Source: a virus (Duplodnaviria; Heunggongvirae; Uroviricota; Caudoviricetes). Taken from it: a stretch of DNA of 64,000 bases. Positions 1,993 through 23,719 of this stretch are shown piece after piece (position 1 is the stretch's first letter; every line of letters begins with the position of its first letter). The stretch is taken from IMG/VR virus record IMGVR_UViG_3300021138_000004. The stretch is one strand, 5' to 3'. Under the pieces are notes generated by a model. The model did not search any database. It worked only from the letters and a program-made list of their open reading frames with translations, and had not been told where the DNA came from. The position numbers were made by a program, and so were the translations under genes.

Positions 1993-2032
1993 CTCTGTGC
2001 AATGACACTAGCATCTGCACAGAGCCTGTCAA
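1993..2032 (-). promoter_or_regulatory. sigma70-like promoter with inverted repeat (-35 TTGACA, -10 TAGTGT)
   Basis: minus strand TTGACA-16nt-TAGTGT; inverted repeat ctctgtgca...tgcacagag spans the -35/-10 region. Confidence 0.5.
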
Positions 2033-2272
2033 TTAGTAATGCAGCCGCGACCCCACATAGTTGTAGTCGTCGAGCAAGTCCTGATCCTGTTCCCACGCAA
2101 ACTGATCTGCGCGATCGTCATACAGCGAGGGATCGTCACGATCAATGAGTTCCTGCTCGATGTCGTAGAGCAAGAGATGATCATTGTCGTCGGCATCCCC
2201 ACTGCGAATGCGGTCACGAATCTCCGATTCAGCGTTCATAAGCCGAGAAGTGGACCATTCCGAAATACGCAT
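2033..2272 (-). CDS. hypothetical acidic protein (79 aa)
   Basis: ORF track; upstream TTGACA-17-TGTATA and AGGAG RBS. Confidence 0.55.
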   Translation of the reverse strand: MRISEWSTSRLMNAESEIRDRIRSGDADDNDHLLLYDIEQELIDRDDPSLYDDRADQFAWEQDQDLLDDYNYVGSRLHY

Positions 2273-2453
2273 AACAGTGTCTCCTTGTTCTAGTTCACAC
2301 TATATACAAGCAGTCAAAGTTGATGTCAAGTGATTTATTGTCCTAGCGATGGGGCACTTCCCCGTCATGGAGAGATTGCCTATTGACAACTGCCAAAATC
2401 CATGCTATTCATAGAACATGGAGAGAGTCAATCCTCTCTCCGTGCCCGTTCAA

Positions 2454-2669
2454 TCAATTCCAATCATCATCCCGAGCCGTGAGTGGATCGTAGCCAATCT
2501 CGTCCTTCCAAGTGCCGCCGAACAGTTCCTCTTCCTCGACTTCCCATTCGTCGAGATCAACTTCTTGGAAACCGTCGAGCTCTTCCTCGACCTCCGCATC
2601 CTCATCAAATCGACGACGATGTCCCGCGCCTTTGAACAGACGATCTAAAGGTGTAAAACGATCATTCAT
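2454..2669 (-). CDS. hypothetical acidic protein (71 aa)
   Basis: ORF track; AAGGAG RBS; overlaps upstream gene stop. Confidence 0.55.
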   Translation of the reverse strand: MNDRFTPLDRLFKGAGHRRRFDEDAEVEEELDGFQEVDLDEWEVEEEELFGGTWKDEIGYDPLTARDDDWN

Positions 2670-2948
2670 CTTCTTCTCCTTCTAGTGTAACTTCAATAAA
2701 GGGCATTTCATTCCAGTGCTGATCCCCTTCAATTCTACTATATTGTTCGAGATAGGACTCACAGATGTCTGCTAGCCAAACAAATCGATATTGATCTTCA
2801 GCACTCATTTTAACTGAGGCAGCAGAGTCTATGCGCTCGAGAACTGCGACAGTATAAGCGAGATCGTTGAGTGTGTCCGCAGACAAACAATGATCAATGT
2901 CTAACCGATGACCGGTCTCAAAGTTTACATAAGTGACATTCCTGTCCA
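2662..2948 (-). CDS. hypothetical protein (start adjusted to MDRNVTY)
   Basis: ORF track 2662..3009; internal ATG preceded by AAGGA RBS and promoter 3000..3028. Confidence 0.5.
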
Positions 2949-2999
2949 TGATCAATTCCTTGTATATACGCACACATGAGAGCGCGTGTTCATTGTGTA

Positions 3000-3028
3000 T
3001 ATATAACACACACTCACGAGCGTGTCAA
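3000..3028 (-). promoter_or_regulatory. sigma70-like promoter (TTGACA-17-TATATA)
   Basis: read on minus strand. Confidence 0.5.
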
Positions 3029-3039
3029 TACAAGTAGAC

Positions 3040-3780
3040 AACCTTTTTTGACTATATAGTGAGAACTAGGTCAACGAGAGATCATCGTATATAGAGAGAT
3101 CCTTGTATACGCGCAGTCCCATGCACAACAGCACAGCGGGGTCTTGGCTGTAGTGGGACTAAATGTGGTTCTATACAGTGACTGCCCCACTAAACAAACC
3201 ACCGAAAACCTCGAAGAATCGGGGAGTTCTTGGTCAGGTTTGACGGGATTTTTGAACGATTTGGATCAGTTTTCACAGGTTTTTTACTGTAAAAAAATTT
3301 GGATTGGCTACGGTGGAGAGAGGCTATGCTAGAATGGTTTTCATTCTTTTCTCAATTTTTCAATCTATATATGATCACCCTCTCGCCTCTTTCTCAATTT
3401 TTCAATCTATATATGATCACCCTCTCGCCTCTTTCTCAATTTTTCTCTCATCTCTCACTATATAAGCATCACCCTCTATATAGTCCCACTCTATATACGC
3501 AATCTCTCGATCACCCCCAGTTTCTCTATATATGAGTTCTAGTATATAGTCAATCACCCGCTCTGCTTCTAAACAGCTCTAGAGATTGTGTGTATATACA
3601 GCGCATTCTAGTTCTACAGTGGATTGGCTTATATAGTCAATCGTTCTGTTTTTATATAGTGAATTGGCATAAATAGTCATTGACTTTAGTGCCTTTGTTC
3701 TGTATACTTGATGTTGAGTTTGAACATTCGTTGAGTAGTTCTTCTATATAGATAGGGTTCACTTATACAACGAGTTCTTT
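3040..3780. repeat. about 0.7 kb non-coding AT-rich region with iteron-like repeats (TATATAGTCAAT x5 and tandem 42-bp units)
   Basis: no convincing ORF; repeated tatatagtcaat/tatatagtgaat elements; candidate origin or regulatory hub. Confidence 0.5.
3346..3500. repeat. tandem direct repeat, 42-bp unit tttctcaatttttcaatctatatatgatcaccctctcgcctc, 2 perfect copies plus degenerate copies
   Basis: seen directly at 3347-3431 then decaying. Confidence 0.7.
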
Positions 3781-4072
3781 ACTCAATACAATATCGAAAA
3801 AGAAATATACTGGCCCGCTTTTCGTCAGTGACAGTATATATAGCATAGAGTTCGTCGTCGTCTTCAATCTCGCGACTATATATCAATCCATATTCTTCTT
3901 CGATATAGTCTACTACCAGTCGAGGATCACCGGCCTTCATTAGCCGTCTTGCTATATGAAATATTCTATTCAAGGAAAGTTTAACTTCAGCCACAGTATT
4001 TGAGTATGAAAAAAGCGGCTCTTTTTTCATCAGTGACAGCATAAGCAACACGGCGGCCTCTTTGGAAGTCAT
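3779..4072 (-). CDS. hypothetical protein, paralog of 3987..4190 (shared C-terminal VTDEKRA..F..YC)
   Basis: ORF track; true start may be an internal Met. Confidence 0.45.
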   Translation of the reverse strand: MTSKEAAVLLMLSLMKKEPLFSYSNTVAEVKLSLNRIFHIARRLMKAGDPRLVVDYIEEEYGLIYSREIEDDDELYAIYTVTDEKRASIFLFRYCIE

Positions 4073-4190
4073 CGAAGGTAATTTGGTATGGAGTATATAC
4101 TAGTCCGAATTCCTGTTCGAGATCACAGTCAGAGAGACCTGCATATATAACGCGCACTTCTTGTTCTTCTGTGAGTTTGATTATCTTCAC
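3987..4190 (-). CDS. hypothetical protein, paralog of 3779..4072
   Basis: ORF track; conserved C-terminal motif. Confidence 0.45.
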   Translation of the reverse strand: MKIIKLTEEQEVRVIYAGLSDCDLEQEFGLVYTPYQITFDDFQRGRRVAYAVTDEKRAAFFILKYCG

Positions 4191-4220
4191 ATGATAAATC
4201 CCGTGAGTGCAATTGCGGGA

Positions 4221-4505
4221 TTATAGTGCATCGTCTGTGTCCTCGTTGTAGTAGACCACACAGGAGTCGAAGTCTCGGCTCCAGTAGGATAGTTGATCGA
4301 ATTTTTCCCAGCTGAGGTGTGCGTCGAGCCACGGTAGTTCATTTGGGTCACGGCCCTGTGAGATCAACTCGCATCGTTGATCGTATCGGCGATCTATCTC
4401 TGCCATGAGGTGTTTGTAGAATGCGCGGATCTGTAGTAACTGGACTACAAACGATCCAGTTACTACCACTAAGGCCACAGCGACTAGGGCAATTATTGCA
4501 GTCAT
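4221..4505 (-). CDS. membrane-anchored protein (N-terminal TM helix)
   Basis: ORF track 4221..4532; start moved to MTAIIALVAVALVVV. Confidence 0.5.
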   Translation of the reverse strand: MTAIIALVAVALVVVTGSFVVQLLQIRAFYKHLMAEIDRRYDQRCELISQGRDPNELPWLDAHLSWEKFDQLSYWSRDFDSCVVYYNEDTDDAL

Positions 4506-4560
4506 CTTTGAGTCCCGTAAAAGATTGCACAACCAAACACCATAGAAGGCGGGTCGAACT

Positions 4561-4746
4561 TCACTGCCAAATTCCCGGATGGGTCATTATATTCATGATG
4601 CCAAGCCCGATGTTCATTACCACCAGACCGAAGTTCATGATGGCCACAGGAACACTACGACCAATTTCCCAAGTCATGATGCCACAAACAGTGATGAAAA
4701 GTGCAGCCGTAAAGCTGAGCAGTCCGCTATGAATCAAAAACAGCAT
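4561..4746 (-). CDS. small membrane protein (61 aa)
   Basis: ORF track; two hydrophobic segments. Confidence 0.5.
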   Translation of the reverse strand: MLFLIHSGLLSFTAALFITVCGIMTWEIGRSVPVAIMNFGLVVMNIGLGIMNIMTHPGIWQ

Positions 4747-4795
4747 TGTCTTTCTCCTATGTGTTGTTTATAGCAAAGACCTAGGGCAATGTCAA

Positions 4796-5278
4796 CTAGG
4801 CTTTCTTGCCGTAGTTCTTATCCCATTTACGAGCACAGCCTTCGATGATCATCACAGCATAACGGCAATGGAACTCGTCAAAGGTCTTGAGCAGGGCAGT
4901 ATCCACGGGCACATTGCAGTCACGCAACAGATAGCGAGCAATGGCCACCGGAAACACTCGGTCCGAATATTCGGGAGGGCGACTGCGAAGGTGCTCAACC
5001 AGCTCTTCACGGTTGTGGCCCAGCATCCACTGGCATTCGGCAATCTCAGCATCCCAATCATCATGTGAGCGGGCCTTGCGGGCAATCTCTGTGTAATTGG
5101 AACGACCGATCTGCGGACCCCGGGTAAAGTAGGTCAGTTTGGTCTCGGGTGCTGCAAAGTTCTCATGGAGAAAAGAGTAAAGATCATCCCAAGCACGATT
5201 TGCCTCTGCATGATCTCCATAGACAGTAGCCTCAATCACCGGACGAATCAACATAAGTGCAGTCTGATACTTGTCCAT
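4796..5278 (-). CDS. hypothetical protein (160 aa)
   Basis: ORF track. Confidence 0.55.
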   Translation of the reverse strand: MDKYQTALMLIRPVIEATVYGDHAEANRAWDDLYSFLHENFAAPETKLTYFTRGPQIGRSNYTEIARKARSHDDWDAEIAECQWMLGHNREELVEHLRSRPPEYSDRVFPVAIARYLLRDCNVPVDTALLKTFDEFHCRYAVMIIEGCARKWDKNYGKKA

Positions 5279-5330
5279 TTGTGTAACTCCTTGCTCTATG
5301 CTTATTGCATAGCAGCACTATCAGTGGAAG

Positions 5331-6043
5331 TCAACGAAAATAACGGCTCTCGCCAAACTGGAATCTATCAACGCTGGGCCCACCGAGTGCAGACCATGCG
5401 CGCAAGGCTTGCAGACCAGGCCAATCGCTGGCAAAGAACTTGACATCGTAACCATAAATGCCGCCGCCCCCGCCGCCCGAGCCGGTATGGATTCCTGTGT
5501 TCTTGAACACATCGGACCCCCAGCGAACATCCTTGTGGCTGACTTCGAATTCGATGCGACCCGACCATCCCGGGTATCCGCGTGGAGCAGGAGTGCCGTC
5601 CTTGAGCTTAGTATCTCCACCCCAATTAGTGACACCATCACGCGGGCAGGCGTGTGTGTTGCTGACACCAGGGCTATAGTTCAGTTCGAGCAGGGTGATC
5701 TTCACAGACCAATCCGAGCGAAGCTTTTCGTGTCGGGCACGATCGCTGTCCCAACCTCGATTGAGTCCGTTGTCAAAGAAGAACTCAGGGTGCAGTTCGA
5801 CCCACCGCATGATCTCTTCGAACCCGCGCTGATTGTTGAAATCGTCGAGCAGAGCTTGCCTACGGCGATTGCGAATATTTCGATAGATGCGATCTTGACG
5901 AATCCGCTTGAGGTGTGCAACATAGCTTTTCTTGGCACCAAAGATCTGCTTGGTCCATGGGCATTGAAAGCCTGTGGCAGCCTTGGCCACTGAAACAGGA
6001 ATGATAGCACCATTTCCTTTGTAAACTTTAATTTTGGGCATTG
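5331..6043 (-). CDS. hypothetical protein with Gly-rich tract (start MPKIKVY)
   Basis: ORF track 5331..6188; internal ATG preceded by GGAGG RBS. Confidence 0.5.
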
Positions 6044-6216
6044 TAATACCTCCAACCACCGATAGGAGAGAACGAAGCAATGAGTGCCCCGTCAAGCAGC
6101 ACAACAGCCTCAAAGCCGGCCTTCTTCGCTGCATCCATAGCATCGTGCAGCGACTCACCGATGTAGACATCATTGCCAAAGTTGACAAGCGTAGCTTGGT
6201 AGATTTGCGGAAGCAT
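6028..6216 (-). CDS. hypothetical protein (62 aa)
   Basis: ORF track; AAGGAG RBS; overlaps downstream gene start. Confidence 0.55.
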   Translation of the reverse strand: MLPQIYQATLVNFGNDVYIGESLHDAMDAAKKAGFEAVVLLDGALIASFSPIGGWRYYNAQN

Positions 6217-6304
6217 TTGTCTATCTCCTTGCTTGTGTATTAGCAGAGAACTAGATACAGGTCAACTTATTTCTTGGCCTTCATGTCGCCGTAAGAAATC
6301 AGGA

Positions 6305-6580
6305 TCAGTAAAGTTCTTCCATCTGTTCGTCAGTGATAACCAGGTATTCCTGCAAGGTTTCCTTAATTTCAGAAGTCCAGTCGTAATCACCATAATCGGT
6401 GCCTTCGGTGGTAGCACGATAGAGCTCGTCGTCAAAAGTGCTAAGCCATTCAGGAGTAGGCACAAAATCCTTGCTCTTGAGATCAGCACGAGTTCGAACC
6501 AGAACAACACCTGTATCGCTGCGGGTACCTTCCTGCTTGATCTTCGAAGAAAGAAACTTGATAGCCGCCTTAATATCCAT
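6305..6580 (-). CDS. hypothetical protein (91 aa)
   Basis: ORF track; AAGGAG RBS. Confidence 0.6.
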   Translation of the reverse strand: MDIKAAIKFLSSKIKQEGTRSDTGVVLVRTRADLKSKDFVPTPEWLSTFDDELYRATTEGTDYGDYDWTSEIKETLQEYLVITDEQMEELY

Positions 6581-6636
6581 GCTAGTTCTCCTTGCTCTAT
6601 AACTGACTATTAGCAGAGCAGAACTAGGTTGTCTAC

Positions 6637-6921
6637 TTATTTCTCATCCAATGGCATATCGTAGAAGACATCATACAGGCCATCTGGTCCTTGACGCAGA
6701 ATTCCTCGATCCTTGGGATTTCGTTTAGGCGGTTCCTTGTGCCGCATTTCACCGCGATCCCATGCTTGATACAAGGGTTCAATCCAGTCGGGTTCGTCGG
6801 GACTTTGCTTTACTTGTCTAGCAGTATAAGGATCATCTTCGTAGGTGCGAAAGGTGCCTACAGGAAAGGTGATATCATAGTATCTCCGCCCGCCAGCATC
6901 TGTGCATGGATATTCGGTCAT
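6637..6921 (-). CDS. hypothetical protein; paralog of 46384..46590
   Basis: TFRTYEDDPYTARQVK...WIEPLYQAWDRGEM vs TFRMYEDTPYVWTQVK...WILPMFAAWERGDM. Confidence 0.6.
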   Translation of the reverse strand: MTEYPCTDAGGRRYYDITFPVGTFRTYEDDPYTARQVKQSPDEPDWIEPLYQAWDRGEMRHKEPPKRNPKDRGILRQGPDGLYDVFYDMPLDEK

Positions 6922-7166
6922 ATTAACCCTAATGCCTGTCTTTCTTCGGGAGTCAGTTTGGCCAAGGCGCGCTCGCGAAGCTTTTCCCGGGTGTTGTTCT
7001 CGTAGTCTTCCACAGTGTCAAAAAGGGTGATGGATTTCTTCCACACACCTCGATACATACTGGTGCCTACCAGTTTTTTGGCCTCTGCTTCACTGGTGAA
7101 ATTGGCGATGGCAGTCATGTTCCGGTCATAGCCCTCGTTGACTTCCCAGTATTCAATGGTGCGCAT
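6918..7166 (-). CDS. hypothetical protein (start MRTIEYWEV)
   Basis: ORF track 6918..7265 truncated to ATG overlapping stop of upstream small ORF (ATAATG). Confidence 0.5.
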   Translation of the reverse strand: MRTIEYWEVNEGYDRNMTAIANFTSEAEAKKLVGTSMYRGVWKKSITLFDTVEDYENNTREKLRERALAKLTPEERQALGLI

Positions 7167-7321
7167 TATCGTTTCTCCATGGTCATACGGAACAGTGCAT
7201 AGAATACTAGGATGTAGGCAAAGATAAACGATGCAAACGGATAGTGGAGGATAGGGGCTGGCCAAATATTCAGCCAGGCACCCACAGCCACTCCGAACAG
7301 AAATATGTTACGTTTGCTCAT
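7166..7321 (-). CDS. small membrane protein (51 aa), below the ORF-track threshold
   Basis: ATG with GGAG RBS; hydrophobic MSKRNIFLFGVAVGAWLNIW...; stop overlaps next start. Confidence 0.4.
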   Translation of the reverse strand: MSKRNIFLFGVAVGAWLNIWPAPILHYPFASFIFAYILVFYALFRMTMEKR

Positions 7322-7335
7322 TTGATGTCTCCTTG

Positions 7336-7659
7336 TTATCGACAGACACTGACTGCTGCGTCAGGATTTTCCTGGCAGGCCCTCAGATAGTCTTCAACAA
7401 ATGGAACAAAATGTTCGTACAGCCCCCAACCGTTGGCAGCATTGAACTTCGAATAGTAGTCGGGATCGGCTTTGAGCTTGGACAGTCCTTCAGTCAACGG
7501 CTCAATCAATTGATCCGCATGAGTGATTCCGATTTCTTCGGGCCGCCACAGGTGCTGATAAATTCCAGCCTCGGCAGCCATCTTGCCCAGATTGTGAGTG
7601 ATGTTGCGCCAATAGACCTCTGTGGGCCGGGCTGCGATCAGTGTTACATCCAGGCTCAT
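7336..7659 (-). CDS. hypothetical protein (107 aa)
   Basis: ORF track. Confidence 0.6.
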   Translation of the reverse strand: MSLDVTLIAARPTEVYWRNITHNLGKMAAEAGIYQHLWRPEEIGITHADQLIEPLTEGLSKLKADPDYYSKFNAANGWGLYEHFVPFVEDYLRACQENPDAAVSVCR

Positions 7660-7883
7660 TAGAACACCTCTGCCTGGATCTCACTGCGATGATCGCTGAG
7701 TGCTCGAACCTGCTTCTTGACCTTGCGGATGGCCTGCGATTCCTTCTTGGAACCCTTGACCACTGCGAGGATCTCCCAATCCTCCCAAGACTCTACAACA
7801 AAATCCCAGCCGTCTTCGTTGTAATGCTCAATAGCGTGAGCACGAACAGCGTCAACGAGATCCTGATCAGTTACCTTGTGCAT
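7659..7883 (-). CDS. hypothetical protein (74 aa)
   Basis: ORF track; upstream TTGACA-17-TATAAC promoter. Confidence 0.6.
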   Translation of the reverse strand: MHKVTDQDLVDAVRAHAIEHYNEDGWDFVVESWEDWEILAVVKGSKKESQAIRKVKKQVRALSDHRSEIQAEVF

Positions 7884-7988
7884 TTGTTTGGTCCTTGTGT
7901 GTGTTTCTATGCTTTGTTATACTAACATCGCAACGGAGTGTCAACTGGAAAATCTAATTCTTGATGAATTTATACGGTAAATATCTGT

Positions 7989-8627
7989 ATGAAAAAGCTA
8001 TTTGTTCCTACTAGGTTATATATTAAAAGAATTGGAAATCTCCGGTATTTCGGAAAAACAAGTAATCTCAATGTTGAGAATTATCCTGGTTCTGGTAAAA
8101 TATGGAGAGATAAAATTAAAAAATATGGTAAATCGTCCATCATTACTGAATGGATTTCAGACTGGTATTACGATGCTGATGAAATTCGGGAAGTAGCAAT
8201 ATCATTTAGCATAGAGAATGATATTATCGATTCTGAAAATTGGGCCAATCTAAAAATAGAAAATGGAATAGATGGGGGACCGTGCGCCCATACAGTAGAA
8301 TCTAGGTCTAAAATCTCTAGGGGAGGCAAAGGTCGAATATGCTCGGAAATAACTAAAAGAAAAATAGCCAATGGAAAGCTGGGAAAGAATCATCCTTTAT
8401 TTACCGGACACTATGTAACACCTTGGGGAGTATTCGAATCCTCGTATGAAGCAAAACGAATGCTTGATCAAGATAGCGAATACAGCACATTGGCTCAAAG
8501 AACAATCCATCAATATTGTAAAGCTAACTGTGATAAAAGATTTGGTAAAAATGGAAATCTTCCTATCAACCGATGGTATAAAACCCCTAGAGAATTAGGT
8601 TTTGGATTTATTCCGGCAAATAATTAG
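7989..8627 (+). CDS. GIY-YIG-like homing endonuclease
   Basis: LYIKRIGNLRYFGKTS and ENWANLKIENG resemble I-TevI GIYxIxN..YVGSA / ENFWIKELNS; plus-strand insert in a minus-strand block. Confidence 0.6.
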   Translation: MKKLFVPTRLYIKRIGNLRYFGKTSNLNVENYPGSGKIWRDKIKKYGKSSIITEWISDWYYDADEIREVAISFSIENDIIDSENWANLKIENGIDGGPCAHTVESRSKISRGGKGRICSEITKRKIANGKLGKNHPLFTGHYVTPWGVFESSYEAKRMLDQDSEYSTLAQRTIHQYCKANCDKRFGKNGNLPINRWYKTPRELGFGFIPANN

Positions 8628-8638
8628 TTTATATTTCT

Positions 8639-9004: not shown

Positions 9005-9006
9005 GA

Positions 9007-9252: not shown

Positions 9253-9296
9253 TGTTTGTCTCCTTGCTTTGTTTGTAGCAGACAGTTAGAGAAGTG

Positions 9297-9626: not shown

Positions 9627-9627
9627 A

Positions 9628-10585: not shown

Positions 10586-10586
10586 A

Positions 10587-16599: not shown

Positions 16600-16770
16600 C
16601 ACCGACAGCCCCCACGCCTGGCCCCAACCGATCTGATGAAGCCCCGATACTGCGTCAACAAGGCAGCCGTTCCACAGCCACATCACGGGCAGCGCAAACA
16701 GGAGGCCGATAACGAAAATAGCGAGGATGCCAAGCACGGCAACACCGACAACAGTAGAAATAGTATTCAT
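16555..16770 (-). CDS. small membrane protein (start [12 protein letters not shown])
   Basis: ORF track 16555..16818; AAGGAG RBS before internal ATG; 3' end overlaps the HEG. Confidence 0.5.
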
Positions 16771-16804
16771 TTTTTTCTCCTTCTTTCGAGTTGGCAATTC
16801 GCCA

Positions 16805-17200: not shown

Positions 17201-17339
17201 AAACTTCTCCTTATTGCTGTCTATGGATGTGTTATAGCAAGATCTAGCTAGTATGTCAAGCGGTAATGATAAATAAAAGTGCAAACCGCGATACCGCAAA
17301 TATCCGTTTGCTCTAACAGTTTAAGAGGAACTATCAGCG

Positions 17340-17993
17340 ATGTATTTACACAACAAATATTCTAAATGGTATAATTCGATTATCGAAAGAGCGCGTTCTC
17401 GTTCAATTGAGGGTTATACTGAATCACACCATATTATTCCTAAATGTATAGGCGGCACTAACAAGAAAGAAAATCTAGTGCGTCTTACCTATCGTGAACA
17501 TCGACTATGCCATTTATTGCTACCATATATGGTTACCTCTGAATACAAAGGACTGATGTGGAGGGCTGCAAAAGGTGTTCTAATGTATAATGGGCCAAAT
17601 CATGAACGGGTTGAAAGTAGAAGCCGATTAGCTGAGAAAGCTAGGATCGAAGCTACTTCGTCTCGCAAAGGTATTCCTCGCAGTCCGGAAACTATCGCTA
17701 AAATAAAAGCTACCAAAGCAGCGCGTCCGATGTCCGATGAAAATCGCGAACTATCTCGACAAAAACGAATTCGAGCAAACCAATCTCGAAAAGGAATGCC
17801 ACATAGTGCTGAACATAATCGAAAAGTTTCGGAATCACGAAACGGACAACAGTCACCAAATAAAGGAAAATCGATGAGCTTCGAGCAGCGCCAAAAAATA
17901 AGCGAAGCTCATAAGGGAAAAATAAGGAGCGTCGAACATTGTCAAAATATCAGCAAAGCAAAGACGACCGAGCTTAAGAATCGATCTACCTAA
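17340..17993 (+). CDS. HNH homing endonuclease with NUMOD3-type repeats
   Basis: ESHHIIPKCIGGTNKKENLVRLTYREHRLCHLL; repeated SPETIAKIKATK / SAEHNRKVSESR units. Confidence 0.85.
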   Translation: MYLHNKYSKWYNSIIERARSRSIEGYTESHHIIPKCIGGTNKKENLVRLTYREHRLCHLLLPYMVTSEYKGLMWRAAKGVLMYNGPNHERVESRSRLAEKARIEATSSRKGIPRSPETIAKIKATKAARPMSDENRELSRQKRIRANQSRKGMPHSAEHNRKVSESRNGQQSPNKGKSMSFEQRQKISEAHKGKIRSVEHCQNISKAKTTELKNRST

Positions 17994-18008
17994 CCTTAGT
18001 GAAGAATG

Positions 18009-18125
18009 TCAACGGTATTTCCGCATCACCCAACGAAAAATCTCATTGAAGATTTGTGCAACGATAAAAAGGACGACAAATCCTATGACTCGAATTGGCC
18101 ATATTGGTTTGTCGTCCTTGCTCAT
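18009..18125 (-). CDS. small membrane protein (38 aa)
   Basis: ATG overlapping upstream stop; hydrophobic core VIGFVVLFIVAQIF. Confidence 0.35.
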   Translation of the reverse strand: MSKDDKPIWPIRVIGFVVLFIVAQIFNEIFRWVMRKYR

Positions 18126-18126
18126 C

Positions 18127-18318
18127 TTACCACTCCAACGTATAGCCGTCTGCAGGTTTGTATGTATAGTGACGCAGATCTCGGACTTCTTCGTGCATGG
18201 CGGTGCCCGACCATCCTTGATAGCGGAGGCACTCAACGAACTCGCCGTCCTTGTAGACATTGACATGATAGTCTAGCATCTTGCTCTGGCCAGGCGTATC
18301 GAGTTTTTGGACTTCCAT
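18127..18318 (-). CDS. hypothetical protein (63 aa, start MEVQKLD)
   Basis: ORF track 18127..18807 truncated; GGAGG RBS. Confidence 0.5.
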   Translation of the reverse strand: MEVQKLDTPGQSKMLDYHVNVYKDGEFVECLRYQGWSGTAMHEEVRDLRHYTYKPADGYTLEW

Positions 18319-18343
18319 TGTGTGCCTCCTTTGTTGCTGTGTT

Positions 18344-18826
18344 TTACGCGGCCCGCTGGGCGTTGTCAAGCTCGATTGCAGTCTCGAGCAGCGTAAAGAC
18401 GGGCAAGCCGGCCTCGTCAGTTTCCTCATGATCGTTGACATACCAAACACCGTCGATGCTGAGGTAATTGTATTCCTGTCCGAGCTCAGAGAGCCATTCG
18501 ACTGCATCCTTGTAGGTCTTGGCTTCACAGTTCTTTTCGCCTCGATCACGCCCGTAGAACAGACACCAGCCGTCATACTTGTCCCGATGAGCAATCCATT
18601 CATCGGTACCATACTTGAATGGATTGCCGAACGGGTGCTGCTCGCCGATCTCTGGACGGAGGCAGCTGACATCGCCCAGCGACAGCAGAGTGTCCAGCTT
18701 TTGAGCGTGATTGTAATAATTCTGCAAGATATAGCCATTGTAGCTGATGTAACCATCCCAGTGACAATATAGGGCCGTAATGCTACCATCCCCATTTTTG
18801 CGTCCAATACTCGAGCGTGTTGCCAT
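18344..18826 (-). CDS. hypothetical protein (160 aa)
   Basis: ORF track; AAGGAG RBS; promoter 18851..18882. Confidence 0.65.
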   Translation of the reverse strand: MATRSSIGRKNGDGSITALYCHWDGYISYNGYILQNYYNHAQKLDTLLSLGDVSCLRPEIGEQHPFGNPFKYGTDEWIAHRDKYDGWCLFYGRDRGEKNCEAKTYKDAVEWLSELGQEYNYLSIDGVWYVNDHEETDEAGLPVFTLLETAIELDNAQRAA

Positions 18827-18850
18827 TTACCTTACTCCTTTGTTTGTGTG

Positions 18851-18882
18851 TTGACACTAGCAACCTGCGTCCCTAGTGTCAA
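18851..18882 (-). promoter_or_regulatory. palindromic sigma70-like promoter (TTGACACTAG...CTAGTGTCAA)
   Basis: minus strand TTGACA-17-TAGTGT; 10-bp perfect inverted repeat covers both elements. Confidence 0.5.
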
Positions 18883-18887
18883 CCTGA

Positions 18888-19199
18888 TTAATCGCCGCTG
18901 TCGATGGTGTAATGGTCCCCGCAGTGCTTGCAGGTGTAGCCCCAATAGCAATTGCCTTTCTGATAGCCTTCGTATTCGTGAACACAAGGCTCACCGTTGT
19001 CTCGGCGTGGCCGCACCTGACCGGTAGGATATCCCGGAAACTGAGTCTGTCCACCGCAGTTCTTGCAAGGAACAGTATCGGTTTCCTTATCATACCCATA
19101 CCAGCCATACTTGATTCCGTAGTCGCGAGTGATGTCGTTTTCACAAGGAACTCGAAGAGTACCGTTGCAGACCGGACAAGTGCAAAGACCTTCAATCAT
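18888..19199 (-). CDS. Cys-rich zinc-ribbon-like protein (103 aa)
   Basis: CxxC pairs (CTCPVC, CKNCGG, CKHCG); GGAG RBS. Confidence 0.6.
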   Translation of the reverse strand: MIEGLCTCPVCNGTLRVPCENDITRDYGIKYGWYGYDKETDTVPCKNCGGQTQFPGYPTGQVRPRRDNGEPCVHEYEGYQKGNCYWGYTCKHCGDHYTIDSGD

Positions 19200-19211
19200 T
19201 GTATATTCTCC

Positions 19212-19487
19212 TCAATTCGACCAGTAAGACTCGGACCCGACCGAACAATGAAACGGAGTGTCGATGGCTTCTTCGATCCACTTACCACTCATGATGTTCT
19301 GCACCCAGCGATAGCCTTCCTTGGCCGGCTGTTCAACAAGATCTCCCGGATCGTTGGTATAGTGGAACTCACCTTTGCTGTGATCGTGCAGAATATACCT
19401 GGAAGTAGGGTTGCCGAACACCGATTCAGGAAGCAGAGCCCAACCAATGGACCGTGCGTTTTCTGGAGTGTTGCGGTAAGTGTGCAT
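19212..19487 (-). CDS. hypothetical protein (91 aa)
   Basis: ORF track; AAGGAG RBS. Confidence 0.6.
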   Translation of the reverse strand: MHTYRNTPENARSIGWALLPESVFGNPTSRYILHDHSKGEFHYTNDPGDLVEQPAKEGYRWVQNIMSGKWIEEAIDTPFHCSVGSESYWSN

Positions 19488-19515
19488 CTCGTCTGCTCCT
19501 TATTGTGCTGCGACT

Positions 19516-19544
19516 GTATTAACAACAGCACACGACCTTGTCAA
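19516..19544 (-). promoter_or_regulatory. sigma70-like early promoter (TTGACA-17-TAATAC)
   Basis: conserved spacer ...TGTGCTGTTG... shared with promoters at 19966, 20574 and 20914. Confidence 0.5.
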
Positions 19545-19550
19545 CAATTT

Positions 19551-19826
19551 TTAACGGATGCGGAAGAGATAGCTATTGCTGCCCTTGGCGAACACGATCT
19601 CAACGCCCGCGGCCTTGAGCGGACCATAGAGACGGTCTTCCTTTTCCTGAGCAGTCAGCTGGTTAGGAAACAGCGGGCGCTCGACCTTGACCACAGTGAA
19701 GGGCTTGCGATTGATACCGCGCTCATTTACGTAGAGCTTGGCGCCGTTGAAGAAGTCCTTGACGATGGCCTTGGTGCTCTCGACACGAAGGATGTGGTCG
19801 GGATCGTTGAAGAAATCTTCGTGCAT
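19551..19826 (-). CDS. hypothetical protein (91 aa)
   Basis: ORF track; AAGGAA RBS. Confidence 0.6.
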   Translation of the reverse strand: MHEDFFNDPDHILRVESTKAIVKDFFNGAKLYVNERGINRKPFTVVKVERPLFPNQLTAQEKEDRLYGPLKAAGVEIVFAKGSNSYLFRIR

Positions 19827-19836
19827 TTCCTTGGCC

Positions 19837-19935
19837 TAGCGGCAGCGATCCGCGGCGTCAAGCGCGGCGTGCTTGGCAGCAGCAAAGGAATAGGTAGTGT
19901 TGGTTTCGATTTCACGCTCTGCGAGGACATTCATG
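19837..19935 (-). CDS. small ORF (32 aa)
   Basis: ATG with GGAG RBS between promoter 19966..19994 and the next gene. Confidence 0.3.
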
Positions 19936-19965
19936 TTCGTTCTCCTTGTTTGTGTTGTGCTGTCA

Positions 19966-19994
19966 CTGTATTAGCAACAGCACAAGGCAATGTC
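19966..19994 (-). promoter_or_regulatory. sigma70-like early promoter (TTGACA-17-TAATAC)
   Basis: read on minus strand. Confidence 0.5.
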
Positions 19995-20004
19995 AAGAAC
20001 TATT

Positions 20005-20223
20005 TTACTGGTTGACCGCCAAACTTGCTTCGGTGTCTTCGATGTCCAATCCCATAGCGGTAGATTCGGCCCATGTCAAATCTCGATCGTCATTCAATTC
20101 AAGAACAGGAAATAGCTTGACATGGTCGCCATTTGGCAGCAGAATCATACGAGGACTGACATCGTCTAACCGGCTGCCCTCAGGGACTTCAATCGTCCCT
20201 GAGAGTGTGAACTTGATAATCAT
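20005..20223 (-). CDS. hypothetical protein (72 aa)
   Basis: ORF track; immediately downstream of tRNA-Lys. Confidence 0.55.
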   Translation of the reverse strand: MIIKFTLSGTIEVPEGSRLDDVSPRMILLPNGDHVKLFPVLELNDDRDLTWAESTAMGLDIEDTEASLAVNQ

Positions 20224-20249
20224 TGGGCTTCATCCTCTTCTAAACAGTT

Positions 20250-20326
20250 TGGTGGACCCTCTGGGACTCGAACCCAGGACAACCGCATTAAAAGTGCGAT
20301 GCTCTAACCTACTGAGCTAAGGGTCC
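20250..20326 (-). tRNA. tRNA-Lys (anticodon UUU), CCA encoded
   Basis: hand-folded cloverleaf: acceptor GGACCCT/AGGGTCC, D arm GCTC/GAGC, anticodon stem TCGCA/TGCGG with loop CTTTTAA, T arm CTGGG-TTCGAGT-CCCAG. Confidence 0.85.
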
Positions 20327-20336
20327 ATTAACTTAT

Positions 20337-20546
20337 TTAAGCAACACGCCAGTTTTCAATGACCATTGTATCGCGGAAATCCTCGTAGAGGTATCCTTCT
20401 TCCATGGCAGCGATCAGTGCATCGCCGTTGCCGATGATTCGTTCACCATGGCAGTTTTCCATGATGTATTCGGAGTATTCCATATCGAGCCGACAGTCGT
20501 CAAACGCCTCTTCGAACTCTTCAACAGTCTGGAACTTCTTGGTCAT
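20337..20546 (-). CDS. hypothetical protein (69 aa)
   Basis: ORF track; AGGAG RBS. Confidence 0.6.
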   Translation of the reverse strand: MTKKFQTVEEFEEAFDDCRLDMEYSEYIMENCHGERIIGNGDALIAAMEEGYLYEDFRDTMVIENWRVA

Positions 20547-20573
20547 TGCGCGACTCCTTTGTTTGTTGTGCTA

Positions 20574-20602
20574 TGTATAGCAACAGCACATGACCTTGTC
20601 AA
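20574..20602 (-). promoter_or_regulatory. sigma70-like early promoter (TTGACA-17-TATACA)
   Basis: read on minus strand. Confidence 0.55.
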
Positions 20603-20606
20603 TGAT

Positions 20607-20882
20607 TTATTCTGCCTCTTCAATCCAATTCAGGACCTTGTAGAACTCTTCGCGCGGAGCAGTATCCTGCCGATAGATACGATCGCTAAGGATATCAACG
20701 TCGCGATCGTCGAGGAAGTCAGCAAGATTGCCGGCATTGTAAGCGATATCGTCATCGAGCATTGCCACCATTTCGGTGTCGCCTTTCTTTGCCCAATATT
20801 CGGTCTGCAAACGAAAATCCTCGAGAACCCGCAGCATCTCATTCTTGATCTGTTCAACGAGTTCATCAGTGGCCTTAGCCAT
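20607..20882 (-). CDS. hypothetical protein (91 aa)
   Basis: ORF track. Confidence 0.6.
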   Translation of the reverse strand: MAKATDELVEQIKNEMLRVLEDFRLQTEYWAKKGDTEMVAMLDDDIAYNAGNLADFLDDRDVDILSDRIYRQDTAPREEFYKVLNWIEEAE

Positions 20883-20913
20883 TTACCTGCTCCTGTGTTT
20901 GTGTTGCTGCTAC

Positions 20914-20942
20914 TTAATAGCAACAGCAACACACCTTGTCAA
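20914..20942 (-). promoter_or_regulatory. sigma70-like early promoter (TTGACA-17-TATTAA)
   Basis: read on minus strand. Confidence 0.5.
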
Positions 20943-20968
20943 CTGGTTAATCGTTGAAAATCTCAATT

Positions 20969-21295
20969 TCATCTTCGAACTTGTCGACGAGGTAGTGATC
21001 GGTGCGCCAGCATTTCTTCAACCAAACGAACTGCCTTTGCGCTTTCACCGCCGACGTGCCATTCATAGCCGCGCCGCGGAGTGCCCGAGTAAGTCTTCCA
21101 GTCATAGATGGTGGCAACAGTGCCGTCTTCGAATTCGATGATCCATTCGCAGGTCACCTTGCCATCGATGTCAGAATCGGGCCCGTCATTGGGCTCGCCC
21201 AGGATCGCCTTGATCTCGTCATAGGTTGCGAACACATAGCCCTGAAGATGAGTCATGTTGGCCGCGAAGAAGTCGTCTTGTTTGATGAAATCCAT
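20969..21295 (-). CDS. hypothetical protein (108 aa)
   Basis: ORF track. Confidence 0.55.
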   Translation of the reverse strand: MDFIKQDDFFAANMTHLQGYVFATYDEIKAILGEPNDGPDSDIDGKVTCEWIIEFEDGTVATIYDWKTYSGTPRRGYEWHVGGESAKAVRLVEEMLAHRSLPRRQVRR

Positions 21296-21352
21296 TTACT
21301 TGCTCCTTTGTTTGTGCTGTGACAATAGCATCATAGACAGTTAAGTCAATGA

Positions 21353-21715
21353 TTATTTCAACAGCGCAGGATCAAACTTACCGTATTCGATCTTGGCCAG
21401 TTCGCGCTGACACTTGCCGTTCTTGTAGTAATTGCGCCACAGGTCACCGCTTTCCTCGCCTTCGCCCGACAAGATGAACAGCAAGTCCGGATACCTGCGG
21501 CTGATTTCCAGCATATTTTCGTCGTATTCATACCACTTGTGGGTATCATCGTCGAAGAGGCTGTCGTAGCCCGAAAGGTCTACGAGTTCGCGAGTGACTT
21601 CGTCTTTATCGATGCCGATATTGACTTTGATCTTTTCGCCCTTGGCATCTACGCCAGTTACCCAGCGTTCACCGGTGCCGGAGATTTCAAGATCGAACTT
21701 GGTATAATAGCCCAT
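21353..21715 (-). CDS. hypothetical protein (120 aa)
   Basis: ORF track. Confidence 0.6.
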   Translation of the reverse strand: MGYYTKFDLEISGTGERWVTGVDAKGEKIKVNIGIDKDEVTRELVDLSGYDSLFDDDTHKWYEYDENMLEISRRYPDLLFILSGEGEESGDLWRNYYKNGKCQRELAKIEYGKFDPALLK

Positions 21716-21726
21716 TTCTGCTCCTA

Positions 21727-22083
21727 TTACAGTTTGAAGAACTTGTTGACCATGTCGGCCGCAGCTTGGCCAGCAGCCGAATTCAGTGCTGCATCGGCAC
21801 GATTGGCATTTTCGAGCTCGGTGACCTGGCGATCATACTCGTCGAGCGTGTCAGCCAACTTGCCGGAAATGATTCCGTCGAGCATAATATCGGCATACTT
21901 GCCACTGGTCACCAGCTGGTTGTCGATCCACACAGTGGCAACCCATCCGCCGCCTTTGAGCTCATCGATTTCGACATTGTGTTGAATGCCAAACAGCTCG
22001 TTCATGAGCTTGTGCTTGATCTTCATACAGTCAATTTCAAACTGTGACTCAAGGCGTTGGGTTGCAAGAACTGCCCTCTTCAT
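21727..22083 (-). CDS. hypothetical protein (118 aa)
   Basis: ORF track; AAGGAG RBS. Confidence 0.6.
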   Translation of the reverse strand: MKRAVLATQRLESQFEIDCMKIKHKLMNELFGIQHNVEIDELKGGGWVATVWIDNQLVTSGKYADIMLDGIISGKLADTLDEYDRQVTELENANRADAALNSAAGQAAADMVNKFFKL

Positions 22084-22095
22084 TGTGTATTCTCC

Positions 22096-22398
22096 TTAGA
22101 TAGACTGGCTATCTTTGTTGGATTCCATTGCTTCCAGCGCGGCCTTGTCGGCAGCAGCCTTTTCCTTGGGCGACAGCGGCGCAGTCTCGTGCTTGATCAG
22201 TGCCGCATGGTCTTCGGCGCTCATGCGCGACAAGATGTCCTCGCGAGCTGCTTGGAGACGAACAAGTTCTGCATCTCCGTTTTCAGGATATACCCGACCA
22301 AGCACAACCTGTGATTTTACTCCTGCAATGCGGAGTTCACAGTGCTTCAAATGAAGCTGCTCTGCGGTGTATTCGAATGCTTTCTTGCTCATGTTCAA
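22096..22398 (-). CDS. hypothetical protein (100 aa)
   Basis: ORF track; promoter 22424..22456. Confidence 0.6.
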   Translation of the reverse strand: MNMSKKAFEYTAEQLHLKHCELRIAGVKSQVVLGRVYPENGDAELVRLQAAREDILSRMSAEDHAALIKHETAPLSPKEKAAADKAALEAMESNKDSQSI

Positions 22399-22423
22399 TT
22401 CCTTGCTTTGTTGTTCTATAAAA

Positions 22424-22456
22424 TGACACTAGCGCCCTTCGACGCTAGTGTCAAGA
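22424..22456 (-). promoter_or_regulatory. palindromic sigma70-like promoter (TTGACACTAGCG...CGCTAGTGTCA)
   Basis: minus strand TTGACA-17-TAGTGT; 11-bp inverted repeat. Confidence 0.5.
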
Positions 22457-22461
22457 TATTA

Positions 22462-23118
22462 TTAGTCCGCTACTGGAACTTCAGGAAAATCCCATTCCAT
22501 GTGGACGGCCAGCTGTTCCAGTTCATACCGCTCGAACCGCTGGCAGCCGATCTGAACATGGTCGGCATTGACCTCAGCACACTTGGTGTAGCCGTTGTAG
22601 CTTTGGTAGTCCATCACATCGCTGACCTTGCGGCCAGCAGCCCACCGCGCCGCAGCGAAGTTCCACAGGCGTCGGACCGTGTTCGGCGTTGCGCGATGAT
22701 CTGCATCACCCCGGGTGCGACGGATGAAGTTCTTGCCGAAGGTCACATGGGTGGCCACAGTCCAGCCATCGGGCACATCAGCGAACGGATACGGCGGCAC
22801 CGGCGGCTTATTGGCTTCCAGGGTGTCGAGAATGTGTTGCTTGACTTCCGAGAACTGGCGAACAGTGTCGATATCTTCCTCGGTGAGTGTGATACCTTTC
22901 TGCTCCAGCAGCATGGGCAAGGCCGGTGAGTTGTCGTCCAGTGCCGCCATCAGGTTCTTGACACTGAAGAACTGCTGGACATTGTCCACGATCAGCACAG
23001 TGACCGCAGGATCCTTGTAAAGTTCGGCCAGCGTGGTGGCCATTTCCTCGGTCTTGAGCTTGTTCAAACCAGCACGATCGACGACCGTGCCTGCATTCAA
23101 CTTGGTAATGAAAGTCAT
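22462..23118 (-). CDS. hypothetical protein (218 aa)
   Basis: ORF track. Confidence 0.6.
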   Translation of the reverse strand: MTFITKLNAGTVVDRAGLNKLKTEEMATTLAELYKDPAVTVLIVDNVQQFFSVKNLMAALDDNSPALPMLLEQKGITLTEEDIDTVRQFSEVKQHILDTLEANKPPVPPYPFADVPDGWTVATHVTFGKNFIRRTRGDADHRATPNTVRRLWNFAAARWAAGRKVSDVMDYQSYNGYTKCAEVNADHVQIGCQRFERYELEQLAVHMEWDFPEVPVAD

Positions 23119-23183
23119 TTGCTTCGCTCCTTTGTGTTGCGCTCGTTGTATAGCGCGGCATTATTGGGCTGTCAACGACTATT

Positions 23184-23480
23184 TTAACCGTTGTCCATCC
23201 ATGCGTTTGGAAAATCTTCGTAGACGTGAATGCGATACCTACGCCGCAGCGAGCCTCCCCACTGCCGCCGGTCGACACTTTTCAGTTCCACAATTTGACT
23301 TTTGATACCTGCACCCTTGAGCATCAGCTGAAAGGATTCGTATTGCGGCAAATCCCAGCCCCAGACCTTGAGACTGCGGCGACCATCAGCTAGTAGATCA
23401 TTGAAGATGTGATTGCCTTTGCCAGTGTGTTTGATATGACGACGAGCCAAGCGGCGGGTTTCGGTAACATACATGATCAA
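23184..23480 (-). CDS. hypothetical basic protein (98 aa)
   Basis: ORF track. Confidence 0.5.
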   Translation of the reverse strand: MIMYVTETRRLARRHIKHTGKGNHIFNDLLADGRRSLKVWGWDLPQYESFQLMLKGAGIKSQIVELKSVDRRQWGGSLRRRYRIHVYEDFPNAWMDNG

Positions 23481-23496
23481 ACCTCCTTACAAAAGA

Positions 23497-23661
23497 TCAA
23501 CGAGAGGTGTTAAATCCGTGGACAATATGTCCAAAGAAAGCACCGATCATTTCAGGATGAAGGATGGTGTAACCGGCGGCACTGAAAATAGCCAAGACCA
23601 GAAATACCACAAAGGCAAACCAGATTTTGAAGAACAACGGCATCTCAAATTGATTACGCAT
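23497..23661 (-). CDS. small membrane protein (54 aa), below the ORF-track threshold
   Basis: ATG after AAGGAG RBS and promoter 23679..23719; hydrophobic FFKIWFAFVVFLVLAIF. Confidence 0.4.
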   Translation of the reverse strand: MRNQFEMPLFFKIWFAFVVFLVLAIFSAAGYTILHPEMIGAFFGHIVHGFNTSR

Positions 23662-23678
23662 CACAGTCTCCTTGAAAA

Positions 23679-23719
23679 ACTCTGTGCAGACACACTAGCA
23701 CCTGCACAGAGTCTGTCAA
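23679..23719 (-). promoter_or_regulatory. sigma70-like promoter with inverted repeat ctctgtgcag...ctgcacagag (-10 TAGTGT)
   Basis: minus strand TTGACA-16-TAGTGT; 10-bp inverted repeat. Confidence 0.5.

Follow-up and report, generated by a model that had tools for sequence, protein, structure and literature searches.

The 64,000-nucleotide stretch of DNA analysed here (hereafter the window; IMG/VR record IMGVR_UViG_3300021138_000004, a virus of the Caudoviricetes) carries four palindromic promoters on its minus strand, which a first-pass annotation had singled out for their unusual -10 hexamer, TAGTGT, and which we number 1 to 4 in the order of their positions. In our judgement, these sites are probably composite promoter/stem-loop cassettes of the promoter-early stem-loop (PeSL) type, set in an early hyperplastic region. 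What is more, they are no separate regulon, but the tightest-folding members of a set of about 30 promoter-plus-hairpin cassettes. The architecture of the cassettes, their enrichment, the covariation of their stems, the strand bias of the pairing and the association with insertions and deletions are there to be read in the sequence; from these we infer promoter activity, start sites, termination and the mechanism of recombination.

Architecture of the promoter cassettes

When the intergenic gaps are all inspected in minus-strand orientation, the same layout recurs, namely a stop codon, TTGACA, 15 nucleotides (nt), TGC, TAnnnn, a CA-rich leader (…GCACAACACAAAC…), AAGGAG and ATG. By a strict definition, positions 1-30000 contain 30 such cassettes on the minus, that is, coding strand and none on the plus strand, as compared to 0.3 +/- 0.6 in dinucleotide shuffles, which lends good support to the earlier view of the sites as sigma70-type early promoters. 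Eight of the 30 fold at or below -18 kcal/mol across the -10 element: the four flagged sites and the cassettes at 15671 (the promoter of rIIA), 19996, 20942 and 3028 (Table 1). The latter four combine -10 elements of the TATAA type with perfect repeats of 9-10 bp, and the annotation was mistaken in describing the neighbouring promoters as devoid of symmetry. Stems of 6-7 bp, e.g. TGTGCTG…CAGCACA, occur in further cassettes. The arm sequences differ among the promoters, with two unrelated types at the four sites and others, namely TGTGCTG, GCTGTCTAC and TGCTCTGTCTA, elsewhere.

At each of the four flagged positions, TTGACA-16/17-TAGTGT indeed stands on the minus strand, and a scan of the window for this pattern gave five occurrences against 0.05 expected, site 2 being counted on both strands. 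Palindromes, too, are commoner than chance would have it: perfect inverted repeats with short loops, 9 bp or longer, number 31 in the window, a five-fold excess over the 6.3 +/- 2.1 of shuffled sequences. Other parts of the earlier description apply to some of the sites only. In particular, a perfect repeat of 9-11 bp had been said to span both hexamers throughout; a perfect repeat, of 10-11 bp, is present at all four sites, but it covers both hexamers only at sites 2 and 3, while sites 1 and 4 have their arms in the spacer and around +1, with the -10 element in or near the loop. Likewise, as regards the core held to be common to the four, the 8-mer GACACTAG (five matches in the window against 1.2 expected, a number reached by 1 of 100 shuffles) is found at sites 1-3 only, site 4 having CACACTAG, and it is GCTAGTGT that all four have in common. 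The annotation did not mention that TGC directly precedes TAGTGT at three of the four sites; with such an extended -10 element in front of it, the hexamer becomes less surprising.

All four sites are intergenic and lie upstream of minus-strand genes, 25-50 nt before a Shine-Dalgarno (SD) sequence and ATG. The stop codon of the upstream gene is 0-10 nt from the -35 element at sites 1-3, and at site 4 a homing endonuclease gene is inserted upstream. The RNA folds of sites 1 to 4 have energies of -19.7 (z -1.9), -22.7 (z -5.8), -23.9 (z -6.0) and -28.1 kcal/mol (z -4.5), respectively. At sites 3 and 4, a G+C-rich hairpin is immediately followed by a U-tract (UUUUAU and UUUUU), the combination by which intrinsic terminators are recognised, and a terminator scan flagged site 3 as terminator-like; at sites 1 and 2 the stem is followed by CACACAA and not by a U-tract.

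Why should precisely these sites carry TAGTGT? In the window, all four TAGTGT cassettes belong to the strong-hairpin class, as opposed to 4 of the 26 others (hypergeometric p ~0.003), and across the clade all 13 distinct TAGTGT cassettes fold at or below -15 kcal/mol, as opposed to 8 of 70 others. At sites 2 and 3, the -35 element pairs with the -10 region (TGTCAA against TTGACA), and TAGTGT overlaps TGTCAA and keeps T-12, A-11 and T-7. At sites 1 and 4, the terminal GT of TAGTGT pairs with the GC of the preceding GTGC/TGC (C-G and G·U), and further wobbles shrink the 12-nt loop to a UAGU tetraloop. Judging from these pairings, we take TAGTGT to be a -10 variant that would meet the demands of both sigma70 recognition and a tight hairpin, and not to be the mark of any special regulation. 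The strict association of TAGTGT with strong stems would follow from this very compatibility.

Pairing, covariation and the meaning of the symmetry

Folded as sense RNA, the hairpins contain 34 G·U pairs, as compared to 8 when folded as antisense RNA. The sense fold is the more stable one in 17 of 19 cases, with a mean difference (sense minus antisense) of -4.6 kcal/mol, against -0.8 kcal/mol in composition-matched shuffles. Since the wobble pairs are almost confined to the coding strand, and since neither a cruciform nor a dimeric binding site would tolerate wobbles on one strand only, the stems appear to be selected as sense RNA and not as a protein-binding DNA palindrome.

Relatives of the window were collected by several searches. 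A search with rIIA returned proteins of 97% and 86% identity and the contigs L022, L023 and L024. A metagenome scan for TGACACTAG-N9-15-CTAGTGTCA and an IMG/VR scan for CTCTGTGCA-N10-16-TGCACAGAG added L028, L041, L066, L067 and L146, which are 79-98% identical to portions of the window, and also gave more distant lake-phage contigs in which cassettes of the same type precede unrelated genes (L037/L076/L105/L112, L046/L048/L094 and L103). Related-locus searches of IMG/VR with the 218- and 160-amino-acid (aa) proteins found no close relatives, and L025 and L026, being the same phage as the window (100% identity), hold no independent information on site 1.

The most telling case is site 4. Namely, one pair of its stem is G-C in the window and L022 (CTCTGTGCAG…CTGCACAGAG), G·U in L067, where the 3' arm has changed from C to T, and A-U in L041, where both changes are present (CTCTATGCAG…CTGCATAGAG); while this pair varies, the -35 element, TGC, TAGTGT and the U-tract are invariant. 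In an alignment of the site 1/4 type, which comprises six sequences only (the site 4 versions, site 1, L146 and TGCTCTGTCTA…TAGACAGAGCA of L023), 95.6% of the cells pair and there are four double-sided pair changes. The TTGACACTAG type is represented by 14 distinct lake-metagenome cassettes. Nine outer pairs of this alignment were fixed by the search pattern and are hence uninformative, and all four free inner pairs show double-sided changes, with inner stems such as GCGUC/GGCGC, GCAUC/GAUGC and GAUCA/UGGUC; 99.5% of the cells pair, a value reached by none of 500 shuffles, and 10 of the 14 have U·G as their third inner pair.

At site 3, the differences among the orthologues in L022, L028, L041, L066 and L067 are confined to the loop, and the U-tract is kept. 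The stretch of site 1 from TTGACA through CACAGAG is identical in L146, a relative of 85-90% identity, and the leader has diverged. As for the other strong hairpins, the rIIA promoter cassette is identical in L022 and L066, the cassette at 3028 is also found in L146, and in L023 the left arm of cassette 19996 has grown to 14 bp against an unaltered leader. The 160-aa gene behind site 2 comes with four versions of its promoter: a dyad of about 10-11 bp in the window, one of 14 bp in L066, a different stem in L023 (GTGTTGTGCTG/CAGCACAACAC, around TAGTGT) and no stem in L022.

These observations bear directly on what the symmetry is for. The annotation had seen in it the site of a dimeric regulator, and operators through which a dimeric phage or host protein co-controls the four promoters would account for perfect 10-11 bp dyads that overlap the promoter hexamers, as well as for the GCTAGTGT core common to all four sites. 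Still, we consider such operators highly improbable. A sequence-specific dimeric regulator would conserve its half-sites, and there is no half-site that recurs at all sites and is conserved irrespective of complementarity. Rather, the four sites have two unrelated arm sequences and other promoters carry more, the arms evolve through compensatory and G·U changes, the common TAGTGT lies partly in the loop, outside the arms, at sites 1 and 4, and the dyad of site 2 has given way, in front of the same gene, to a non-palindromic promoter in L022 and to another stem in L023. What is more, the analysis yielded no candidate regulator.

A further point on the side of operators is that an identical dyad, TTGACACTAG-N12/13-CTAGTGTCAA, stands between divergent moaC and membrane-protein genes of GC-rich soil bacteria. 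Of the 121 metagenome matches to the relaxed palindrome, some 100 proved not to be phage cassettes, and many of these represent one orthologous moaC promoter locus. The dyad is carried by soil contigs with a G+C content of 67-75% (L027, L036, L045, L049-L052, L069, L073, L077, L080, L089, L099, L100, L104, L106, L108, L113, L115, L123, L124, L130, L132, L133, L135, L136, L138 and L142), in most of which it lies 4-8 nt upstream of the moaC start, which looks leaderless. We regard it as one conserved bacterial locus unrelated to the phage, and an operator or a bidirectional promoter is plausible there. The sole IMG/VR match to the exact TTGACACTAG-N9-15-CTAGTGTCAA, contig L019, was dismissed as unrelated as well: at 3990-4140 this viral contig has an iteron-like array of TTGACACTAGTGG and CCACTACCCCTAGTG repeats within a 230-aa open reading frame (ORF), as does L079.

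The annotation's other suggestion was bidirectional use, whereby the self-complementary -35/-10 sites (2 and 3) would fire both ways and give antisense RNA to the upstream gene. Site 2 does read TTGACA-17-TAGTGT on both strands, a perfect antisense TTGACA is present in 6 of the 14 cassettes of the TTGACACTAG type, and symmetric bacterial promoters can drive divergent transcription (bioRxiv 10.1101/2020.01.31.928960). However, the antisense -35 element is mismatched at site 3 and in the remaining 8 of the 14. Among the four sites, such use is possible by sequence at site 2 only, and even there the antisense side has CCC in place of the extended -10 TG. No plus-strand gene, ORF or SD sequence follows, and RNA made on the plus strand from site 2 would be antisense to the 3' end of the upstream gene; nowhere do promoter-quality hexamers on the two strands go together with genes to be transcribed in both directions. 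The geometry differs as well, with the symmetry pairing -35 with -10 and not two overlapping -10 elements, as in the shared -10 arrangement described for bidirectional promoters, and wobble pairs in the sense direction only speak of selection on one strand. It is our belief that bidirectional firing has very little chance of being the explanation.

Insulation of genes and exchange of cassettes

In the mechanism we favour, the cassette would act in DNA as a host sigma70-type promoter (perfect -35 element, 16-17 bp spacer, usually an extended -10 TGC, TAnnnT) that drives the next small gene, while the inverted repeat would form a hairpin in RNA that reads through from upstream promoters. By general promoter rules, sigma70 transcripts should start about 7 nt past the -10 element. 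Because this start would fall within or beyond the 3' arm, the hairpin would form only in RNA from an upstream promoter, and the cassette's own transcript, free of it, would keep an unstructured CA-rich leader. At sites 3 and 4, a stem of 13-17 bp with four or five U would terminate or attenuate read-through, with the consequence that each gene would be insulated from its neighbours and re-initiated, and at sites 1 and 2, which have no U-tract, the hairpin may serve as a weak attenuator, a stabiliser of 3' ends or a processing site. Finally, the repeated cassettes would provide recombination joints for the gain, loss and swap of small ORFs and homing endonuclease genes.

Sites 3 and 4 resemble intrinsic terminators, with the promoter of the next gene contained in the stem or identical to it. 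Like Rho-independent terminators, they have a G+C-rich stem of 13-17 bp, a tetraloop and UUUUA or UUUUU; the U-tracts are conserved in all orthologues, and the L046/L048/L094 group has UUUUGU. Unlike in such terminators, the entire hairpin is also a promoter, and sites 1 and 2 and the four other strong hairpins have no U-tract; for these six, weak attenuation, processing or 3'-end protection seems more likely. One can go further and argue that the stems, while being sense-RNA elements, are not terminators, but processing sites (e.g. for RNase III) or protective hairpins in polycistronic read-through RNA. As such, they would set or protect an end of a cistron, be it the 3' end of the one upstream or the 5' end of the one downstream. 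The absence of a U-tract from six of the eight strong hairpins and the length of the stems (13-18 bp) are in keeping with this, and the strand bias and covariation would suit any sense-RNA role. We consider it unlikely nonetheless, seeing that UUUU has been retained right after the stem both at sites 3 and 4 and in the L046/L048/L094 group, and that one RB49 PeSL stem-loop put to the test behaved as a strong terminator (PMC2839356).

A tentative extension of the terminator idea concerns the TTGACACTAG...CTAGTGTCA cassettes, which might form a distinct, minimal 'self-insulating promoter', with the same 30 nt acting as -35/-10 in DNA and as the arms of an intrinsic terminator in read-through RNA. 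The choice of TAGTGT as the -10 sequence would then be imposed by its pairing with the -35 element in RNA. Cassettes of this class recur in several uncultured lake-phage lineages before unrelated genes (the three groups of distant contigs named above). If true, phage early regions might follow it as a general rule of compact design, and synthetic biology could gain a useful part.

As to exchange, synteny with L022, L023, L041, L066 and L067 is interrupted at cassettes 19544, 21349 and 22454 as well as at sites 2 and 4. Over its 59 nt, the site 4 cassette is 98% identical to L022, and it stands as an island between two window-specific insertions, a Seg-like endonuclease gene (23762-24469) and the 54-aa ORF; it precedes a different ORF in each of the window, L022, L067 and L041. 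At site 2, homology to L022 resumes inside the cassette, beside a 68-aa ORF present only in L022. In L023, the gene that stands behind cassette 21349 in the window directly adjoins a cassette of the site 3 type, as expected from recombination of two cassettes via their common GCTAnTGTCA. At least eight free-standing homing endonuclease genes are present in the window; the five on the plus strand within the early array each adjoin the -35 side of a cassette, one separates rIIA from rIIB, and most are not at the same position in L022, the 97% relative.

Could the repeats, then, be elements of DNA in the first place, hairpins, cruciforms or stretches of repeated homology that favour recombination, the excision and insertion of cassettes, or endonuclease-linked exchange, with RNA folding incidental? 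The coincidence of indel and replacement junctions with cassettes and the placement of all five plus-strand endonuclease genes of the early array are as this would have it, and PeSL-to-PeSL recombination and mini-circles have been shown in RB49/phi1 (PMC2839356). Yet recombination requires homology and not self-complementarity, and neither the one-strand G·U pairs (34 vs 8) nor the path from G-C through G·U to A-U at site 4 is expected of a cruciform, in which both strands have to pair. As the sole explanation, we find it quite improbable; a role in DNA recombination is compatible with one in RNA, and we retain it as a secondary function of the promoter/stem-loop cassettes.

PeSLs are known from the T4-type phages RB49/phi1 (Arbiol et al. 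2010, PMC2839356), and later from PST/T4 and nt-1/KVP40 (Comeau et al. 2014, PMC4122927). They consist of a stop codon, an AT-rich stretch, near-consensus sigma70 boxes, and SD plus ATG, with a stem-loop between the boxes, overlapping -35/-10 or flanking them, and they cluster among ORFans in hyperplastic regions; one tested PeSL stem-loop cut read-through like a strong terminator, and PeSL recombination gave indels, mini-circles and ORFan shuffling (PMC2839356; PMC4122927). All the features of PeSLs that can be recognised in sequence are found in the lake phage. The cassettes are intergenic, start at the upstream stop codon and end at SD and ATG; they have near-consensus sigma70 -35/-10 boxes at 16-17 bp and a stable stem-loop between or overlapping these, with G·T pairs in the stems; they are present in dozens of copies among small ORFans of a hyperplastic early region; and they are associated with insertions, deletions and replacements between close relatives. 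Unlike in PeSLs, the stems are not polyG/polyC, the -10 element is bent to TAGTGT for pairing, and the U-tract is limited to some of the stems. In addition, it is the two hexamers, -35 and -10, that form the arms at sites 2 and 3, an arrangement outside the five listed PeSL subclasses. Finally, with rIIA and DNA ligase proteins at most about 45% and 35% identical to those of any deposited phage, the lake phage is not shown to be T4-like.

Promoters tied to hairpins are also those of the N4 virion RNA polymerase. The early promoters of N4 are short hairpins, with a stem of 5-7 bp and a 3-nt loop, which are used by a phage polymerase and have no sigma70 boxes. The lake sites have near-perfect sigma70 hexamers, stems of 10-17 bp and wobble pairs that point to RNA, and N4-type hairpin promoters were rejected on these grounds of anatomy.

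Apart from the small size of one alignment and the fixed outer pairs of the other, several points weigh against the PeSL interpretation. Promoter activity, start sites and termination are deduced from general rules, and the sigma70 rules may not be those of the host; a final C in the -10 box, as in TATAAC and TAATAC, is frequent among the cassettes but unusual for sigma70. At site 2 the hairpin can be done without, as the 97% relative L022 has a non-palindromic promoter with TAATAT there. A U-tract follows only 2 of the 8 strong hairpins, because of which termination cannot be the general role of the stems. Finally, among the more distant relatives (rIIA identity 43-50%), the stems of the repeated promoter cassettes are weak or absent. 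In particular, L002-L017 and L021 (IMG/VR; 43-45% rIIA identity, L016 with a match of 70% over 254 residues) have before many genes a different, highly conserved early cassette of about 60 nt, aaaggTTGACAataaatgg.tttgggtaTATAATagaatcttagacag.aac, without strong stems, and are for that reason of no use for covariation, and L147, a 338-kb contig with 50% rIIA identity, has TTGACA-N15-TGCTATAAACAGCACAT with 5-bp stems only. Since these relatives have weak stems or none, strong stems are a feature of the narrower lineage of the window.

The PeSL design itself, i.e. mobile promoter/terminator cassettes that insulate and shuffle small early genes, is already known. What our results would add is its extension beyond the cultured coliphages and vibriophages of the T4 type, into an uncultured clade of freshwater phages, and, as new, the comparative evidence that the stems are selected as RNA, namely covariation via G·U intermediates and sense-strand bias. 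The odd -10 hexamer can be understood as a trade-off between recognition by sigma70 and pairing within the hairpin. In the annotation of phage early regions, palindromes of this kind should not be read as operators.

The phage and further features of the window

The window belongs to a large freshwater phage, uncultured and of the virulent type. DNA identical or nearly identical to it is found in metagenomes of humic lakes, from samples of the Trout Bog type (L025 and L026; JGI 3300021142, TB03JUN2009E). Among deposited phages and plasmids the window has no nucleotide match, megablast of 17-25 kb found none, and a distant-mode search of the same collection matched a tRNA only. The closest proteins of deposited cultured phages have about 36-45% identity for rIIA and 35% for the DNA ligase, and rIIA relatives of 50% identity lie on contigs of 338-378 kb. 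Minus-strand genes, small (50-300 aa within 28 kb) and tightly packed, fill positions ~1-30000, where the G+C content is ~0.45-0.53, as compared to ~0.38-0.45 in 30001-64000, and near 30000 the gene strand changes. Besides rIIA and rIIB, with a homing endonuclease gene between them, the window encodes two tRNAs, an ATP-dependent DNA ligase, endolysins and several free-standing GIY-YIG/NUMOD3 or HNH endonucleases. None of the T4 core genes is within the window, and the T4 late-promoter motif TATAAATA occurs once, without enrichment. Membership of the T4 group would not be established by rIIA, rIIB and Seg-like genes together with protein matches of at most 45% and 35%. An Rfam scan of the window gave the two tRNAs and no family at the four sites, and the genes downstream of the four sites have no match in Pfam.

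Table 1. Coordinates of the cassettes, stems and genes discussed in the text (positions in the window)
Feature	Position	Strand	Details
Array of ~30 sigma70-like cassettes	370..28095	minus	each after the stop codon of one small gene and before the next SD + ATG
Site 1 cassette	1952..2035	minus	stop TAA 2035-2033; -35 TTGACA 2032-2027; TGC; -10 TAGTGT 2010-2005
Site 1 stem	2025-2016 and 2001-1992	minus	10-bp perfect repeat (1992-2025)
Site 1 gene start	1954-1952	minus	SD AAGGA, ATG; 151-aa gene; leader contains the AAGACCCCGCTGTGCT motif
Site 2 cassette	18824..18890	minus	stop TAA 18890-18888; -35 TTGACA 18882-18877; TGC; -10 TAGTGT 18859-18854
Site 2 stem	18883-18850	minus	11-bp perfect; the -35 and -10 regions themselves form the arms, TTGACACTAG and CTAGTGTCAA
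Site 2 gene start	18826-18824	minus	SD AAGGAG, ATG; 160-aa gene
Site 3 cassette	22390..22464	minus	stop TAA 22464-22462; -35 22454-22449; -10 TAGTGT 22431-22426
Site 3 stem	22453-22424	minus	13 bp, TGACACTAGCGUC/GGCGCUAGUGUCA; 11-bp perfect repeat; GAAG tetraloop; then UUUUAU 22423-22418
Site 3 gene start	22392-22390	minus	SD AAGGA, ATG; 98-aa gene
Site 4 cassette	23659..23726	minus	-35 23719-23714; TGC; -10 TAGTGT 23697-23692
Site 4 stem	23712-23679	minus	11-bp perfect; 17 pairs with G·U; UAGU loop; then UUUUU 23678-23674
Site 4 gene start	23661-23659	minus	SD AAGGAG, ATG; 54-aa ORF
rIIA promoter cassette (15671)	15629..15671	minus	TTGACG-16-TGC-TAAAAC; arms GCTGTCTAC/GTAGACAGC across -10; -26.7 kcal/mol, z -7.6
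Cassette 19996	19955..19996	minus	TTGACA-17-TGC-TAATAC; arms TTGTGCTGT/ACAGCACAA across -10; -18.9 kcal/mol
Cassette 20942	20900..20942	minus	TTGACA-17-TGC-TATTAA; arms TGTGTTGCTG/CAGCAACACA across -10; -23.1 kcal/mol, z -8.2
Cassette 3028	2962..3028	minus	TTGACA-17-TGT-TATATA; long imperfect stem-loop across/downstream of -10; -22.4 kcal/mol, z -4.0
rIIA	13458-15671	minus	
rIIB	11652-12599		
Homing endonuclease genes	7989-8627, 15988-16599, 17340-17993, 23762-24469, 28173-28808, 57027-57665	plus	Seg-like GIY-YIG/NUMOD3 or HNH
Homing endonuclease genes	12660-13403, 46744-47424	minus	Seg-like GIY-YIG/NUMOD3 or HNH

A few further observations concern the surroundings of the sites. The 16-nt motif AAGACCCCGCTGTGCT has three copies on the minus strand (1972-1987, 3130-3145 and 29944-29959; one with one mismatch) against 0 expected, of which one lies in the leader just past the hairpin of site 1 and another in the long leader that belongs to the first early promoter (~30028). 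The ORFs after sites 1 and 4 share GT(C/T)GTTCTTCAAAATCT in different frames (1900-1945 and 23610-23650, minus strand) and their proteins are dissimilar; the shared stretch may be the remnant of a duplicated cassette together with the 5' end of an ORF. Paralogy of the two genes was found to be unsupported (BLASTP E = 0.085), the DNA they have in common amounting to the cassette of about 41 nt and a 17-nt stretch only.

Positions 2950-3780 comprise 830 nt without a convincing ORF, with a 42-bp tandem repeat at 3348-3445 (2.3 copies of 100% identity) and numerous motifs centred on TATATA. For GTATATAS, the window has 14 occurrences where 2.5 are expected, mainly at 2300-4100, and the L025 contig breaks within 2950-3780. 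This stretch could be an origin or a second class of promoters. Finally, a 15-bp perfect inverted repeat, ATCCATACTTTATCC/GGATAAAGTATGGAT, is located at 13398-13450; its second arm comprises the SD sequence and ATG of the endonuclease gene 12660-13403, and by its position it looks like a hairpin that would sequester the ribosome-binding site.

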